A stretch of DNA of 32,455 bases, taken from a virus. Its lineage: Duplodnaviria > Heunggongvirae > Uroviricota > Caudoviricetes. A model generated the notes under the pieces. The model was not told the DNA's origin and ran no database searches. It saw only the letters and a program-made list of their open reading frames with translations. Made by a program: the position numbers and the translations under genes. Where the stretch lies: the IMG/VR virus record IMGVR_UViG_2531839532_000012, positions 1-32,455 of that record. One strand, written 5' to 3'. Shown here in pieces: positions 2,615 to 32,455 of the stretch. The first letter of the stretch is position 1; each line of letters starts with the position of its first letter.

Positions 2615-3003
2615 TCCACCTTAACCACTATCGAATAGAACAAAGCCTTGCAATCCAGTGCAAAGCTTTGTGTGTATGAGTTTTTTCTCACATCACCAGG
2701 CAATCATCAAACTCCGTATTCCTGGCGTCATTAATTATGTAAGTGATCACCACGAATATAGCCAGTGCAGAACTGTAACCATCATCATCTTCTGGCAGCG
2801 CTTCCCTTCTCCCGTTATCCAGATTAACCGGGTGGTGCTGAGGATGAGTCCGATATCGCTTGATCCTGAATTCCACATCTATAGCAAAGCGGAAGGATGT
2901 CTCAATGTCGTGGACACACAGTGTTACAGCCACAAATCTATAGCCTAAGAAAGGTTTATTTTGTAATTAAAGAAGATTTTAAAAACCAGATTACTCATTC
3001 ATA

Positions 3004-3032
3004 TAGACACCAATCCCCTACAGTCATAAAAT
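3004..3032 (+). promoter_or_regulatory. Candidate sigma70 promoter for the acyltransferase (TAGACA-N17-TAAAAT)
   Basis: Hexamers read directly in AT-rich DNA about 45 bp upstream of the ATG at 3075. Unverified. Confidence 0.3.
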
Positions 3033-3074
3033 GCCTCTTTTGAATTGCTTTATCTTCATAACAAGAGGTTATTG

Positions 3075-4150
3075 ATGCTTCGCCACTTAACAGGACTCAG
3101 ATTTATAGCTGCATTAATGGTTTATTTATGCCATTTAAATACAGACTATTTTGGTGTTTTTGTAAAAGAAATGTTTTCCCAGGGATTTATTGGCGTTTCC
3201 TTTTTCTTTATTTTATCTGGCTTCATTCTTTCATATTCATATGAAGACAAGCTAAAAAATGAAGTAACAAGTAAAAGACAGTTTATTCTTTTAAGATTGG
3301 CAAGAATTGTTCCAATGCATCTATTATTAGCCATGCCATTTATTTTACTAACCATTCACTTAAAGAACTTTGATTTTTCAAAAACCTTAACAAATATTTT
3401 ATTAATGCAAAGTTGGATACCAAAGGAGGATTACTACTTCTCATTAAATGGTGTATCATGGTCTTTGTCTGATGAGCTGTTTTTTTATTTAATGTTTATT
3501 CCGTTGATTTATACATCAATTACAAAGAAAGTAATCACTGCAATATCAATTATAACTCTACTATTAACTATATATTTTTTAAAAATTATACAAACAGAAG
3601 AACTTAATCACTGGTTATATTATATATTCCCAGTAAGCCGCTTGGTAGAATTTATTTGCGGCATGATTATTTACGCTTGCTGGAAAAACAGCCGACAGCA
3701 GACAGTCGACAGTCGACAGTCGACAGTCGACAGTCGACAGTCGACAGTCGACAGTCGACAGTCGACAGCCTTTTGTTTTTAATTTCACTATTACCTCTGC
3801 TAATAGCTATATATTATAGCAACAACATAAATAATAGTCTACGTTATTCGTTATATTATTTACTCCCCATGGTAATATTCTTTACTTCATGCATCTATCT
3901 AAGAAATGGAGTCATTCATACTATCCTCAGTTCAAAAACCCTAGAGCTATTAGGGAAATCATCATTTATTTTTTATTTAATTCATCAACCCATTATATTA
4001 TTTTGCTTTAAAATCTTTGGACATAACCCCGGACCACTCTATTTAATAGCGCTCCTTGTTATAATAACCATAGTCTCAATCATACTTTATAAATTAGTTG
4101 AGGAGCCTTTAGAGCTGATGCTAAGAAAACGAATTTTAGCAGTAAAATAA
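3075..4150 (+). pseudogene. Acyltransferase-3 family membrane protein (O-acetyltransferase-like), split by frameshift at a heptamer repeat
   Basis: AAGAGG then ATG 3075. N-terminus MLRHLTGLRFIAALMVYLCHL fits acyltransferase_3 proteins and the product is multi-pass hydrophobic. Frame 1 stops at 3782; a second frame continues from the repeat to 4150. Low GC. Confidence 0.7.
3701..3763. repeat. Perfect tandem heptanucleotide repeat (GACAGTC) x9, with degenerate copies at 3694-3700 and 3764-3770
   Basis: Counted directly in the sequence. The unit contains a SalI site (GTCGAC). It sits inside the acyltransferase coding region. Confidence 0.95.
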
Positions 4151-4152
4151 AT

Positions 4153-4178
4153 AAAACCGCGCTATTGCGCGGTTTTAT
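4153..4178. terminator. Bidirectional rho-independent terminator (AAAACCGCGC-tatt-GCGCGGTTTT)
   Basis: Perfect GC-rich hairpin flanked by A-run and T-run, between the convergent acyltransferase gene and the tail-fibre operon. Confidence 0.55.
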
Positions 4179-4341
4179 CTTCAGGCTTGATGAATTTTTT
4201 ACCGTCATATGACCAGCCAATACCAACATCTCCAACACATTTAACTATATCCGCTTTTTCTGGCTTAAACTCTGACTTACCACCCCATACAACAAGATTT
4301 GTAACGACACCATTTTGTACGACTGCATAAATATCGCTCAT
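4162..4341 (-). CDS. Small protein (59 aa) translationally coupled to the tail-fibre gene; possible fibre chaperone
   Basis: ATG overlaps the tail-fibre TAA stop (TAATG). MSDIYAVVQNGVVTNLVVWGG.... Function not recognised. Confidence 0.45.
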   Translation of the reverse strand: MSDIYAVVQNGVVTNLVVWGGKSEFKPEKADIVKCVGDVGIGWSYDGKKFIKPEDKTAQ

Positions 4342-5489
4342 TACTGATACTCCCACACAAGAATATATCCATGATTTCCATTATTTCCTGTCGCTGGGCC
4401 TGATGACGCCTTATTGTATTTCCCTGTCCCGCCAATACCGTATGTCCCAAGCATAGTAGTGGTTATACTTTCAACGCCAATCGCCTGATCATCACCAAAT
4501 CCAAGTGCCCCACATAAATTTGATCGTGAAACTGAATGGAACAGAATCCCTTGCCCTGTAGGAATTGGTGCTTCTGTTGCACTTCCCCCTGAAAATGGAG
4601 GTACCTGCTGAACTTGAGTTGATCCCCTTCCTCCCGGGCATACAAGCAAATCACCAAAGCTTGTATTCCCGCCGTCCCCTCCAGAGCCTCCTGGTCCTGT
4701 TCCTGCTACACCACCGCTTCCAATAGTTACTTGCACGGATTCAGGTATAGACTGATAAAAAAATGCTTTAGCATATGCCCCGTTGGAACCGGCAGCACTT
4801 ACACCACAGTTATTTGAGGCTGTTGCTGATAAATTGCCACTGGCACCACCACCGCCAACGGCTTCCACTATAATTTTCGTTACACCAGGTGATTTGTGAT
4901 AAGTCCCAGATGATCCAAATACCTGAACCCCCAAAAGCCTTCCTGTTCCATCACCAAGTGTTAAATATTGTAGAGTTTCCGATACGTTTTTTTTACTTAA
5001 AATTTCCCTACCATTTCGAGTCAGCGCTGTCATATCCATTGTTCCAGCACCTGTAAAAAATGCCAGCCCATCCGGTATTCCTGTTAAGCTCGACAATGAT
5101 GTCAGATTATCATTTTTATCCTGTTTATCATTCAGAATGTCTGTCATTCCCAGGTTTTCGAGAGCCGTTTGCACAGTGCCATCCGATTTGATATCACCAA
5201 ACGGATTCTTGCGGCTCAGGTATTCAACAGCAAACCCCGATCCCAGCAATTCAACAAAACCGGGCAGATCACCATTATCAAGCACATCCCGTTGCGTTTT
5301 GTCACTTACAAACTGGGCCAGAGCTGCAGCAATAAAGCTGGCCTGCCGAATAACCTTATTGACTTGCGCACTGGATGCTTTCCCTGCTGTAAATCCGGAT
5401 AAAAGCGCAGGCAACGCTTCCCATTCCTCCTGCGACATAACATTGGCATTCCGATCCGTTGCAAACGCTTTAAAGTCATTTTTCGCCAT
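4341..5489 (-). CDS. Phage tail-fibre protein (382 aa from ATG 5489; alternative ATG at 5507)
   Basis: Central motif TALTRNGREILSKKNVSETLQYL resembles the conserved region of lambda Stf and P2 H fibres. Gly-rich C-terminal tip. GC content drops 3' of about 5150. Confidence 0.65.
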   Translation of the reverse strand: MAKNDFKAFATDRNANVMSQEEWEALPALLSGFTAGKASSAQVNKVIRQASFIAAALAQFVSDKTQRDVLDNGDLPGFVELLGSGFAVEYLSRKNPFGDIKSDGTVQTALENLGMTDILNDKQDKNDNLTSLSSLTGIPDGLAFFTGAGTMDMTALTRNGREILSKKNVSETLQYLTLGDGTGRLLGVQVFGSSGTYHKSPGVTKIIVEAVGGGGASGNLSATASNNCGVSAAGSNGAYAKAFFYQSIPESVQVTIGSGGVAGTGPGGSGGDGGNTSFGDLLVCPGGRGSTQVQQVPPFSGGSATEAPIPTGQGILFHSVSRSNLCGALGFGDDQAIGVESITTTMLGTYGIGGTGKYNKASSGPATGNNGNHGYILVWEYQ

Positions 5490-5628
5490 CAGAGTAATAC
5501 TCCCCATGCCCCTACATCAAAACCACTGATGAATTCGTTATCCATATCAAAACCAAAAAATTTTGAACCTTCCGATGGAGTTTCCACCGAAGGTGTTTCA
5601 ATGCCACCCGCCCATACCCCGGCGGCTT

Positions 5629-6000
5629 TTACTGTGAGATAATGGTCATGTAACGCCTGACGCCATTAACGGCCAGCGTTCCGGCACGGTTGAGTGCACT
5701 TTCTGCTCCCGCAGCATTACCATCAAGTGCAGCCTGCGCCGCGGCTTTAAGCTGCGGCACCGTCTGCTCTTCTGCCGATTTAACGCCGGGGACCAGGTGA
5801 GGTCGTGGCGGGATGTTCTGCTCTGGTGAGCCGTATTCGTTGAGGTAACCGATGCCCGCATTACCAAACGGAACATCATCCCGTTCGCTGTCTTCCGAAG
5901 GGATGCCGACCAGCACATCTTTTTTGGTTAACGACCTGAGCGCATCCAGAATGGCCTTAGCGTTATCCACCCTCGTTGTTACACCGCTTTTGAAACTCAT
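5629..6000 (-). CDS. Hypothetical phage structural-module protein (123 aa)
   Basis: ATG overlaps the upstream stop (ATGA). Lies in the head gene cluster. Family not recognised. Confidence 0.5.
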
Positions 6001-6404
6001 AGCTGGCGACCGCCTGCACCGAACATCGTGATCAACTGATAAAATTCAGCGCCATATCGGGTGTTATTCCAGAAACCTGCATCAGGATTCAGCGTCGCGC
6101 TGGTGTCATAGCTGACGCTTACCTTATCCACGGACTTTGAGGACTGAACACCATTGGTTGAACCGCCCGGACCCCCAGCCAGCATCGCTCTGCTGTCAGC
6201 CGCCCAGAGCGTCATGTAGTGAGCAACGAACAACCCGGCAAAGTACGGAAACAACTTTTTGCCGGTGACATTTTCGCTCAGCAGTTCATCGGCCAGATTC
6301 AGACGGAACCCGATTTGGGCGTCGGGATATTTTGCCGGGTCAGCAAACTGCGGGAAGTCGCGGCGAAAATCACTTACCGCTGGCAGACTTTGATTCTTTG
6401 ACAT
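5997..6404 (-). CDS. Phage protein, DUF4054-like (135 aa)
   Basis: Start [13 protein letters not shown] chosen by context. Overlaps the upstream gene by 35 nt. Family assignment from memory only. Confidence 0.45.
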
Positions 6405-6738
6405 CTTTAGCCCCATTACCGCCAGTCCGGGCGGCAGTAATCTGCGCCTGCAGGCTGTCGTTCTGCTCCTGCAGTTTGAGCAATGCATCTTTAAGATCGG
6501 CAATCAGCTTATCTTTGTCGGCAATCTGCGCTTGCAGGCCGTCGATAATGGGTTGCAGATCATCGGTGTCGCTAATCACGCTTTCGGAAAGCTCAGAGTG
6601 CGCCTGGGTGAACCAGTGCGACGCGACCTCTTCCGGTACGTTATGCCGTCCCCGGCCAAACTCCTGTTTTGACTGATCGCCGAGCGTCAGCGTAAACGGG
6701 GTGTGAACATGGATGGTAACCAGCTTTTCTTTCGCCAT
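6370..6738 (-). CDS. Hypothetical coiled-coil phage protein (122 aa)
   Basis: AGGAA then ATG 6738 ([12 protein letters not shown]...). The track ORF's N-terminal extension overlaps the capsid gene and was rejected. Confidence 0.55.
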
Positions 6739-6752
6739 TTCAGTTTCCTTCA

Positions 6753-6768
6753 GGCCCCTTTCGGGGCC
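6753..6768 (-). other. Intercistronic GC hairpin with GNRA loop (GGCCCC-GAAA-GGGGCC) just after the capsid gene
   Basis: Perfect 6-bp all-GC stem, 10 nt after the capsid stop. No U-run follows. Confidence 0.4.
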
Positions 6769-6778
6769 ATTCTGGTTA

Positions 6779-7720
6779 TCAGATACCGTCCACATAGGAC
6801 AGAGTTTCTTTATACACTGGCTCGACTGCACCCAGCTTGCCGTAGTAAGTGACGATCTGATACAGGCCGCGATACTGCACCGGCACGCTCTGAAGCGGAA
6901 CCAGCGGGTAGCGGACGTATTTTTTATCGTTGGTGTACGCAACCATGCGATCCTTATTCCCCACACCACGGCCTTTCAGCCATTTAACCGCGCGGATATT
7001 CAGCGGAACACCGTTCTGGTGATAGCTGATGGTGTTGGTCTGAAGGTACGTCAACAGGGACTGGTTACCCGCAGATGAAACGATGATGCTGGACAACAGA
7101 GCAAACTGTTCAGGCGGGATCAGCAAATCACGCGGGACCACAGAGTAACCAGAAGCGGCCCACGCATCAGACAGCACCTGGTTAATGCTTGCGCGGATTT
7201 CGTCCGGTGTTGAGGTTGCCCACGTTTTGGCAGCGTTGTTGACAGGCACGCCGTCCAGGGTAACAAGGCCTTTCAGGTTTAATGCGGAATCGCCAACATA
7301 TACCTGTTCATCGTTATCCATCTGCCATTTCAGTTGCATCCCGTCATACTTCTGCGTATCAATCGGGCGGCCGACCTGCTGAGCAGCCTGCAATTCTATG
7401 ACCGTCCAGCCAAGTTCCATCCCCCACAGGTTCAGCGGGTTACCGGATTTGCCGGTATCCACGTTCACGCCAGCAATAGCGGTTGAGTCTTTGCCTACCC
7501 AGTTTTTGCCATTCGGATTTGCACCAGTACCCGCAGCGGCGAAGCTGGTATTCGTCCAGCTGGAAATGTCATCTGCGATAGAGACATCTTCACGCAACTG
7601 AATATCGCGGGTCCAGGTGTACCCCACCAGTGGCAGGTTCAGCGTCTGGTCGAGTCGCTCCAGCTCCCCGATGAGAAAGGCACCAGAGCTGTCAACGGTT
7701 GCCTGATCAAAAGTAATCAT
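6779..7720 (-). CDS. Major capsid protein (313 aa; DUF2184-type, assigned from memory)
   Basis: AGGAA upstream of ATG 7720. Position after scaffold and decoration-like genes, and size, typical of a major capsid protein. Confidence 0.65.
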   Translation of the reverse strand: MITFDQATVDSSGAFLIGELERLDQTLNLPLVGYTWTRDIQLREDVSIADDISSWTNTSFAAAGTGANPNGKNWVGKDSTAIAGVNVDTGKSGNPLNLWGMELGWTVIELQAAQQVGRPIDTQKYDGMQLKWQMDNDEQVYVGDSALNLKGLVTLDGVPVNNAAKTWATSTPDEIRASINQVLSDAWAASGYSVVPRDLLIPPEQFALLSSIIVSSAGNQSLLTYLQTNTISYHQNGVPLNIRAVKWLKGRGVGNKDRMVAYTNDKKYVRYPLVPLQSVPVQYRGLYQIVTYYGKLGAVEPVYKETLSYVDGI

Positions 7721-31546: not shown

Positions 31547-31828
31547 ATGAATCTTGTGACACTCAAAACGTGGGGAAAACTCAGATATCCGGATAACCCC
31601 CCATCAATATCAACGCTGAGACGATGGGCAAGGAATGGAAACATTTATCCTGCACCTGAACTACACGGGAGGAGTTACAGGGTGGTTCCGGAAGCTTTCT
31701 ATATCAACCCAAATAAGGTTGATACCGATATAACACACCATCAGCCTAATGGGCGACAAGGGAGAGACAGTCCGTTACTGGAGAAGTTAAAACATGCAGC
31801 GGAAAAAATACGATCCCAATTTGCCTAA
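31547..31828 (+). CDS. xis: Excisionase (Xis-like)
   Basis: MNLVTLKTWGKLRYPDNPPSISTLRRWARNGNIYPAPELHGRSYRV resembles lambda Xis. 3' end overlaps the int start. Confidence 0.55.
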   Translation: MNLVTLKTWGKLRYPDNPPSISTLRRWARNGNIYPAPELHGRSYRVVPEAFYINPNKVDTDITHHQPNGRQGRDSPLLEKLKHAAEKIRSQFA

Positions 31829-32080
31829 AAACTTAACATATCGAAGGAGGGACAAAGCATATTACTGGCGCAACCCTCTGACGAAAGAAGAATTTACACT
31901 AGGTAAAATTTCAAGAAGAGATGCAGTAGCGCAGGCAATTGAAGCAAATCATTATATATACAAAAACTACTCTCCTGCTGCCTTAATTGAAAAACTAAAA
32001 GGGTTCGACTCATTTACTATGGCAGACTGGATTGAACGTTACAAAACGATTCTTATAAGGAGAAAAGTGTCCAGAAATAC
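31794..32080 (+). pseudogene. int: Tyrosine integrase, N-terminal arm-binding domain only; truncated by IS1 after about 95 codons
   Basis: ...NLTYRRRDKAYYWRNPLTKEEFTLGKISRRDAVAQAIEAN aligns with the lambda Int N-terminus. The frame runs into the IS1 terminal repeat at 32081 and stops. Confidence 0.7.
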
Positions 32081-32455
32081 GGTAATGACTCCAACTTATT
32101 GATAGTGTTTTATGTTCAGATAATGCCCGATGACTTTGTCATGCAGCTCCACCGATTTTGAGAACGACAGCGACTTCCGTCCCAGCCGTGCCAGGTGCTG
32201 CCTCAGATTCAGGTTATGCCGCTCAATTCGCTGCGTATATCGCTTGCTGATTACGTGCAGCTTTCCCTTCAGGCGGGATTCATACAGCGGCCAGCCATCC
32301 GTCATCCATATCACCACGTCAAAGGGTGACAGCAGGCTCATAAGATGCCCCAGCGTCGCCATAGTGCGTTCACCGAATACGTGCGCAACAACCGTCTTCC
32401 GGAGCCTGTCATACGCGTAAAACAGCCAGCGCTGGCGCGATTTAGCCCCGACATA
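32081..32455 (-). mobile_element. IS1 insertion sequence (partial; continues beyond window end)
   Basis: Terminal inverted repeat GGTAATGACTCCAACTTATTGATAGTG at 32081, followed by the InsB coding sequence on the minus strand. Confidence 0.85.
32096..32455 (-). CDS. insB: IS1 transposase InsB (C-terminal part; 5' end outside window)
   Basis: ...[16 protein letters not shown]...[88 protein letters not shown]. Confidence 0.8.

Follow-up and report, generated by a model that had tools for sequence, protein, structure and literature searches.

A heptanucleotide repeat tract as a candidate phase-variation switch in a prophage acyltransferase gene of Escherichia coli

The split acyltransferase gene and its repeat tract

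The stretch of DNA analysed here (hereafter, the window) comprises positions 1 to 32,455 of the IMG/VR virus record IMGVR_UViG_2531839532_000012, a prophage region of Escherichia coli. It matches the genome of E. coli strain 300709, isolated from human stool in Mozambique, at 99.9% over 25 kb. The prophage carries a gene for a membrane protein of the acyltransferase-3 (AT3) family that is split into two reading frames by a tract of tandem 7-nucleotide (nt) repeats. We examined this tract as a candidate switch by which the gene would be turned ON (in frame) or OFF (out of frame), the window copy being OFF. The parts of the gene are:

3075–3782, + strand: N-terminal reading frame of 235 amino acids (aa), with predicted helices 1–6 (a count taken from a structural model), the residues encoded by the tract and a premature stop
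3690–3770, + strand: heptanucleotide tract, consisting of AGCCGAC, AGCAGAC, nine copies of AGTCGAC and AGCC; 11 whole units, 81 nt
3771–4150, + strand: C-terminal part of the gene, out of frame, with the last four helices as predicted from the same count and a match to PF01757

When the repeat is read as GACAGTC, direct reading of the sequence gives an exact count of nine perfect units at 3701–3763, bordered by the degenerate copies AACAGCC and GACAGCA (3687–3700) on one side and GACAGCC (3764–3770) on the other. Tandem Repeats Finder places the array at 3688–3768, with a period of 7, 11.6 copies, 95% matches and a score of 141. Nine of the ten occurrences of GACAGTC in the entire 32 kb window fall within the tract, so the run is not due to chance. 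The frame that opens at ATG 3075 encounters the tract in the middle of the gene, as codons 206–232 of 235, and stops at 3782 with the C-terminal end STAFCF; a second frame is open from 3656 to 4150. The gene (window 3000–4150) has a guanine-plus-cytosine (G+C) content of about 31%, compared with 47–54% in the neighbouring phage genes, and the tract forms a local G+C-rich island inside it.

The two parts of the gene are in frame when the tract length leaves a remainder of 1 on division by 3, that is, when the count of whole units is divisible by three; with 11 whole units, the window gene is out of frame. This rule was verified on the DNA of 38 loci and on database proteins, with no exception among the tracts. 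The gene was rebuilt in silico with 4 to 14 GACAGTC units, and a 1-unit version was made separately. Versions with 1, 4, 7, 10 and 13 units encode a single full-length open reading frame (ORF), and all other unit numbers tried give a truncated one. Translated from ATG 3075, the fused protein comprises 360 aa with 10 GACAGTC units and 353 aa with 7.

The anatomy described above, from the nine perfect units with their degenerate flanking copies to the stop at 3782 and the other frame running to 4150, is as the original prediction had it: the exact count, Tandem Repeats Finder and the ORF analysis all agree. The further claim that the gain of one unit or the loss of two would fuse the two parts is borne out as well. 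Both fusions are full-length AT3 proteins covered by PF01757 from end to end, and both are real, being identical to database proteins of 360 aa (P0125) and 353 aa (P0121). The predicted fusion length of about 370 aa does not apply to the start at ATG 3075 and is reached only from an upstream TTG at 3045.

PF01757 (Acyl_transf_3) matches the 10-unit fusion over residues 5–341 (profile positions 4–325/326, E = 1.1e-30, 107.3 bits at a cut-off of 31). The separate parts are recognized as well, the N-terminal part over profile positions 4–207 (E = 3.5e-18) and the C-terminal part over 219–325 (E = 4.9e-10). No other Pfam family was found in the protein, which is a stand-alone AT3 of 339 aa in its intact form and has no SGNH domain, and PHROG 3333, annotated as O-acetyltransferase, matches it with E = 6e-51. 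An NCBIfam search with the acyltransferase gave no family match and a sequence search of the PDB nothing meaningful; a fold search of the PDB gave no significant match, with only a weak remote match to HGSNAT (probability 0.72). Both motifs that define AT3 proteins (PMC9833829) are present: R-X10-H, which lies in transmembrane helix 1, and RXXR, on the cytoplasmic side of helix 3. In an alignment of 76 homologues, numbered according to the 339-aa protein, R9 and H20 of the former and R74 of the latter are invariant and R77 is kept in at least 90%. The invariant residues of the C-terminal part are L274, G275, S278, F279, Y282 and H285.

The AlphaFold2 model of the intact 339-aa allele has a predicted local distance difference test (pLDDT) score of 94.8 and a predicted template modelling (pTM) score of 0.92. 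Its helix pattern is compatible with 10 membrane helices and a long segment (residues 96–125) past helix 3. The residues encoded by the tract (206–212) form a loop between the helices at 186–205 and 213–228, and the corresponding loop of homologues is short and basic. With the N-terminus taken as cytoplasmic, the orientation established for Oac (PMC9833829), the helix count makes this probably the loop that joins transmembrane helices 6 and 7 on the cytoplasmic side. When a natural 9-unit in-frame allele (353 aa) is modelled, only the enlarged loop drops in confidence (to about 66), with an overall pLDDT of 94.0 and pTM of 0.92. By the same predicted count, the 235-aa OFF product ends before the last four helices and is without any of the invariant C-terminal residues. 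The intact enzyme presumably O-acylates a surface glycan and thereby alters phage or immune recognition. The O-antigen would be the leading candidate target, because of the analogy with phage Oac proteins (PMC9558356) and because the gene lies beside tail-fibre genes.

Tract alleles in public genomes

The gene is carried by 7 of 5,426 complete E. coli genomes, all seven with a 3-unit allele that encodes an intact 339-aa protein. This imperfect tract, AGCCGAC AGCAGAC AGTCGAC AGCC, is the commonest allele, and the 339-aa protein, also the commonest, is encoded on 499 contigs in a large protein collection. The same 25-nt tract length was found at eight of nine IMG/VR loci and at both of two metagenome loci, and the 3-unit imperfect tract is evidently the ancestral state. 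In the orthologue from Citrobacter, the tract site shows no 7-nt periodicity. An exact-pattern scan of species-representative genomes gave no matches, and a scan of metagenomes gave two loci only, both with the ancestral allele.

Beyond this short form, database proteins and DNA from public assemblies of E. coli and Escherichia albertii together reveal tracts of 2–12, 15–18 and 23 units. The DNA of the 38 loci alone contains tracts with 3, 4, 5, 7, 8, 9, 10, 11, 15, 16, 17 and 23 whole units, which are composed of the unit variants AGTCGAC, AGCAGAC and AGCCGAC, three in all, as pure runs or mosaics. Full-length database proteins longer than 339 aa comprise 346, 353, 360 and 374 aa and come from both E. 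coli and E. albertii; a 367-aa in-frame allele is predicted from the 109-nt tract of one further locus (L008). The out-of-frame alleles appear in the protein collection as N-terminal fragments of 214 to 263 aa, and a C-terminal fragment of 125 aa (P0132) is called as a separate product on 24 contigs. The 235-aa fragment of the window is itself present in NCBI as an exact match (ENA53731.1 / WP_001737233.1, from E. coli 2726950, contig AQED01000116.1). When the window sequence is given 1–7, 9 or 10 GACAGTC units, each construct is identical to a database protein. Pure GACAGTC alleles of 8 and 11–16 units, looked up as exact matches, did not occur in the collection; the longer tracts that exist are mosaics or consist of other units.

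The variation is concentrated in the tract. Over about 32 kb, the window and strain 300709 differ by 22 substitutions and a sole indel of 56 bp, which amounts to eight repeat units. Identical 1,370-nt flanks are shared by 10 independent loci that display five tract alleles. A second identical flank of the same length, one substitution away from the first, is shared by 14 loci, including an E. albertii chromosome, with 10 tract alleles. So many alleles on identical flanks imply that the tract mutates recurrently and at a rate that exceeds that of its surroundings by orders of magnitude. Alleles of both states, ON and OFF, are found in nature and are connected by single-unit steps.

Artefactual expansion of the 9-unit run during sequencing or assembly might be suspected, given that the window comes from a draft assembly. 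However, the tract is merely 81 nt long, an identical 11-unit tract is present in an unrelated assembly and prophage setting, and a graded series of alleles extends over dozens of independent assemblies, among them a complete E. albertii chromosome. We therefore assign this explanation practically no weight.

The identical 1,370-nt flank of the E. albertii chromosome CP117654.1 (L025) and several E. coli loci (L001, L005, L024 and others) implies that phages recently carried the module from one species to the other. The unrelated assembly with the 11-unit tract of the window (nine copies of AGTCGAC) is GCA_005396905.1 (BGIH01000062.1; L021), where the gene lies in a Mu-like prophage. Its N-terminal ORF is cut further, to 159 aa, by a second lesion, and the tract shared with the window reflects either independent convergence or recombination. 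Two database proteins are both labelled 'Escherichia coli 2726950', namely the 235-aa OFF product (P0160, ENA53731.1) and a 353-aa protein with 9 whole units in its tract (P0121, ENA60232.1), so this strain may have a second, ON copy of the gene.

Slippage, switching and alternative explanations

It seems likely, with a probability of about three in four, that a hypermutable slipped-strand tract toggles this prophage AT3 gene and that the window copy is OFF. Under this scenario, a stand-alone AT3 membrane protein is carried as cargo beside the tail-fibre genes of temperate Escherichia phages, and replication slippage would add or remove 7-nt units within the codons of a short inter-helix loop. 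Because 7 is not a multiple of 3, every unit gained or lost shifts the reading frame. The gene is ON at 3, 6, 9, 12, 15 and 18 whole units and OFF at all other counts. The window copy, with 11 units, is OFF and can yield the 235-aa fragment only, and one additional unit, or two fewer, restores the full-length protein.

Tract changes occur in whole 7-nt units, and the reading frame strictly obeys the rule given above; the changes probably arise via slipped-strand mispairing in replication. Loops of more than about 4 nt evade mismatch repair in E. coli, so that 7-nt loops should escape it too. The run of nine perfect units probably switches at an appreciable frequency inside a clone, by analogy with neuO, another E. 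coli gene. In a strain whose neuO has 21 AAGACTC units, 7% of the cells were one unit off (fragment analysis, four colonies; PMC13001214).

Other routes to instability or to altered expression were considered. A single-stranded GACAGTC array folds as a quasi-palindromic hairpin (free energy, −26.3 kcal/mol; z = −7.2) because each unit contains GTCGAC. The hairpin was rejected as a required cause of the instability, given that arrays of the non-palindromic units AGCCGAC and AGCAGAC expand equally far. Rescue of the OFF allele by programmed ribosomal frameshifting or transcriptional slippage is unsupported, no slippery site or homopolymer having been seen. When the sequence was read by eye, no GATC was seen upstream of the gene that would suggest Dam control of the kind described for Salmonella oafB.

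Several observations weigh against the interpretation of the tract as a switch. Most carriers hold the short 3-unit imperfect tract, which looks stable, so that switching would be confined to the lineages with an expanded tract. The in-frame share of the distinct expanded alleles is about one third to one half, as under random slippage without selection, and in a state-blind sample all four distinct expanded alleles are OFF. The window prophage is defective, with its tail genes deleted and an IS1 element inside the integrase gene. Finally, the nearest phage homologue of the acyltransferase, the O-acetyltransferase of TL-2011b, is only 35% identical; it is the best of just six matches in a tblastn search of 50,697 phage records. 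Megablast found no counterpart of the gene in these records, and the gene is known from prophages and IMG/VR contigs only.

The ON share close to a random one third, the four OFF alleles of the state-blind sample, the defective prophage and the retention of the non-expanded allele by most carriers are also compatible with a repeat that is neutrally unstable within a cargo gene in decay, in which case the OFF alleles would be young pseudogenes of degraded prophages and switching would not be selected. We consider this unlikely, in view of the independent expansion of three unit variants in two prophage settings and two species, the persistence of long in-frame alleles (12, 15 and 18 units) without any other lesion, and the C-terminal frame of OFF alleles that is identical on 24 contigs. 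Furthermore, neuO, an accepted switch, has the same near-random ON share, and the tract would mechanically toggle expression whether or not toggling is selected.

The unit changes also affect the protein itself. In-frame alleles of 339, 346, 353, 360, 367 (predicted) and 374 aa exist, and the 353-aa model retains the fold with a longer loop. The repeat might serve mainly to tune the enzyme, with loop-length steps of seven residues modulating activity, as reported for the repeat region of NeuO, whose length raises catalytic activity according to earlier work cited in PMC13001214. However, about half or more of the expanded alleles are out of frame, so that ON/OFF is the dominant effect; tuning as the main role is, in our view, improbable, although it is compatible with a switch.

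The toggling of the AT3 gene by the tract could further reflect a contingency locus caught at birth, a tentative idea to which we give distinctly less weight than to the switch as such. A stable proto-repeat of three imperfect 7-mers would have arisen in the Escherichia version of the gene, but not in the Citrobacter orthologue, and would later have been amplified, independently from each of the three unit variants, in several lineages of E. coli and E. albertii. As a second such switch beside neuO, it would then point to convergent selection for masking and unmasking, in a stochastic manner, a surface glycan recognized by phages or antibodies.

Repeat-driven ON/OFF switches are typical of Haemophilus, Neisseria and Campylobacter. 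To our knowledge, few have been described in E. coli, and neuO is the example that our literature search found. NeuO, a soluble left-handed beta-helix (hexapeptide-repeat) enzyme, is not homologous to the window protein, an AT3 integral membrane protein with PF01757 as its sole Pfam family. Full-text literature searches found no description of the present locus. The original prediction of a phase-variation switch that is OFF in this copy stands as a candidate after both the search for a full-length ORF and the comparison of copy number, which ranges from 2 to 23 units on otherwise identical flanks in related genomes. Its remark that such a locus is unusual for Enterobacteriaceae was overstated, because an O-acetyltransferase gene of E. 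coli, neuO on CUS-3, is firmly established as being switched by a heptanucleotide repeat (PMC13001214).

The likeness to neuO of CUS-3 in E. coli K1, which encodes the O-acetyltransferase of the polysialic acid capsule (repeat 5'-AAGACTC-3'), is extensive: the same species, a prophage cargo gene for an O-acyl or O-acetyl transferase with a known (neuO) or presumed surface glycan target, and a 7-nt repeat in the coding sequence (PMC13001214; PMC3046976). Both genes are ON at every third copy number only, vary widely in copy number and are ON in roughly one third of cases (neuO is OFF in 65.6% of 64 complete genomes; PMC13001214), and in both, the repeat adds peptide that in-frame alleles tolerate. 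In neuO, however, the repeat is 5'-terminal and present in 3–53 copies in essentially all carriers, whereas the tract described here lies mid-gene in an inter-helix loop, is built from three unit variants and is in the 3-unit form in most carriers. The oafA gene of Haemophilus influenzae is likewise an AT3 gene that is switched by a simple sequence repeat of its own; its product O-acetylates heptose III of a surface glycolipid, lipooligosaccharide (PMC9558356). It differs in having a tetranucleotide repeat, in being chromosomal, in belonging to another genus and in having an established substrate and serum-resistance phenotype.

Phage Oac proteins (OacA of Shigella phage Sf6, OacB/C/D, and PhiV10 Oac of E. 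coli O157) are also stand-alone AT3 proteins, of about 330–340 aa, that are carried by temperate phages as lysogenic-conversion cargo and contain the R-X10-H and RXXR motifs (PMC9558356). None of them has been reported to have a repeat switch, and the best phage-record match to the window protein, at 35% identity, suggests that it is not closely related to them in sequence. Within Enterobacteriaceae, Salmonella oafB (gtrC family II) is a phase-variable, prophage-associated AT3 gene for O-antigen (rhamnose) acetylation, but it is controlled by Dam-dependent methylation of promoter DNA, not by a coding repeat, and encodes an AT3-SGNH fusion (PMC9558356). The locus functions like neuO and involves no new principle, with neuO and H. 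influenzae oafA as precedents. What sets it apart from the known systems is that the repeat lies mid-gene, in a loop, that three unit variants occur, and that a stable proto-repeat exists alongside alleles that are expanded and unstable.

If it is indeed a switch, E. coli would have a second prophage O-acyltransferase under heptanucleotide control besides neuO, from a protein family unrelated to the first. This would suggest that stochastic control of receptor-masking genes evolves repeatedly in the temperate phages of E. coli. The locus also illustrates how an unstable repeat arises from a stable proto-repeat, with the intermediates present in public genomes. Annotation pipelines split or truncate the gene into 'acyltransferase family protein' entries of 125–263 aa, so that both its presence and its state are misread. 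Should the target be the O-antigen, members of a single clone of diarrhoeal E. coli or E. albertii could differ in serotype-relevant O-acetylation, which would bear on serotyping, phage therapy and glycoconjugate vaccines.

Prophage setting of the acyltransferase module

The prophage setting that was originally proposed is confirmed. The region is a lambdoid prophage located between pphA and yebY, and the acyltransferase gene is part of a module with two genes that converge on it, one of them tail-fibre-like. The remaining features of the module are:

3004–3032, + strand: candidate sigma-70-like promoter, TAGACA-17-TAAAAT, matching 10 of 12 positions of the consensus, on which match alone it is called
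3063–3068, + strand: ribosome-binding site AAGAGG, 6 nt ahead of ATG 3075, as read from the sequence
4149–4180, no strand assigned: G+C-rich hairpin, AAAACCGCGC-loop-GCGCGGTTTT, with a 14-pair stem (computed on the minus strand) and T-runs on both sides
4162–4341, − strand: conserved 59-aa gene with no function assigned, a constant companion of the acyltransferase gene
4341–5507, − strand: glycine-rich tail-fibre-like gene (382–388 aa), convergent with the acyltransferase gene

ATG 3075 is also the start of the orthologous gene in the NCBI annotation of E. coli KSC1031 and 300709. Promoter-like sites such as the candidate at 3004–3032 are fewer in this region than in shuffled sequence. The hairpin at 4149–4180, between the convergent acyltransferase and 59-aa genes, is likely a bidirectional terminator. 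Judged from sequence features, the putative promoter, the ribosome-binding site and the terminator hairpin make up the usual layout of lysogenic-conversion cargo.

The acyltransferase gene is convergent to the 59-aa and tail-fibre-like genes and is close to the gene of a Pin invertase. In related loci, the tail-fibre-like gene adjoins genes for Baseplate_J and Phage_Wedge1 or Mu Gp48. A weak match to PF21722 (Gly_rich_2) was obtained with its 366-aa E. coli and 211-aa Citrobacter counterparts, not with the product of the window gene itself. This gene marks a phage tail-fibre module that carries the acyltransferase as cargo. In other strains, the same three-gene module occurs in a Mu-like tail module beside the pao operon. 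It is also present in a prophage remnant of Citrobacter portucalensis, with an acyltransferase orthologue of the same length and 83% protein identity and a 61-aa counterpart of the 59-aa gene in the same position.

On one side of the acyltransferase gene lie the Pin-type invertase and a fragment of a gp53-like tail-fibre tip (1398–2371), and on the other side, the tail-fibre gene (4341–5507). This arrangement resembles the host-range switches known as the Mu G-segment and the e14 P-segment, with the acyltransferase inserted. A search for inverted repeats flanking a possible Pin-invertible tail-fibre segment that includes the acyltransferase gave none of at least 14 nt that was convincing. Immediately upstream of the module, a 77-aa chimeric ORF (2381–2614) combines the N-terminus of a tail-fibre-assembly protein with the C-terminus of an integrase. 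In strain 300709, the annotation shows it as two partial pseudogenes; it marks the junction of two prophage remnants.

At 5500–7000, head-completion genes abut the tail-fibre gene of the window, a place taken in five related loci (L029, L032, L033, L035 and L037) by baseplate J and wedge genes; the window prophage has lost, by deletion, its block of tail, sheath and baseplate genes. At the other end, an IS1 end is recognizable by its inverted repeat, GGTAATGACTCCAACTTATTGATAGTG, and by the C-terminus of InsB on the minus strand (window 32081–32455 and 31794–32102). The element splits the prophage integrase gene about 100 codons from its start, whereas the same integrase is intact in E. coli 300709. 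With a broken integrase and missing tail genes, the window prophage looks locked in place.

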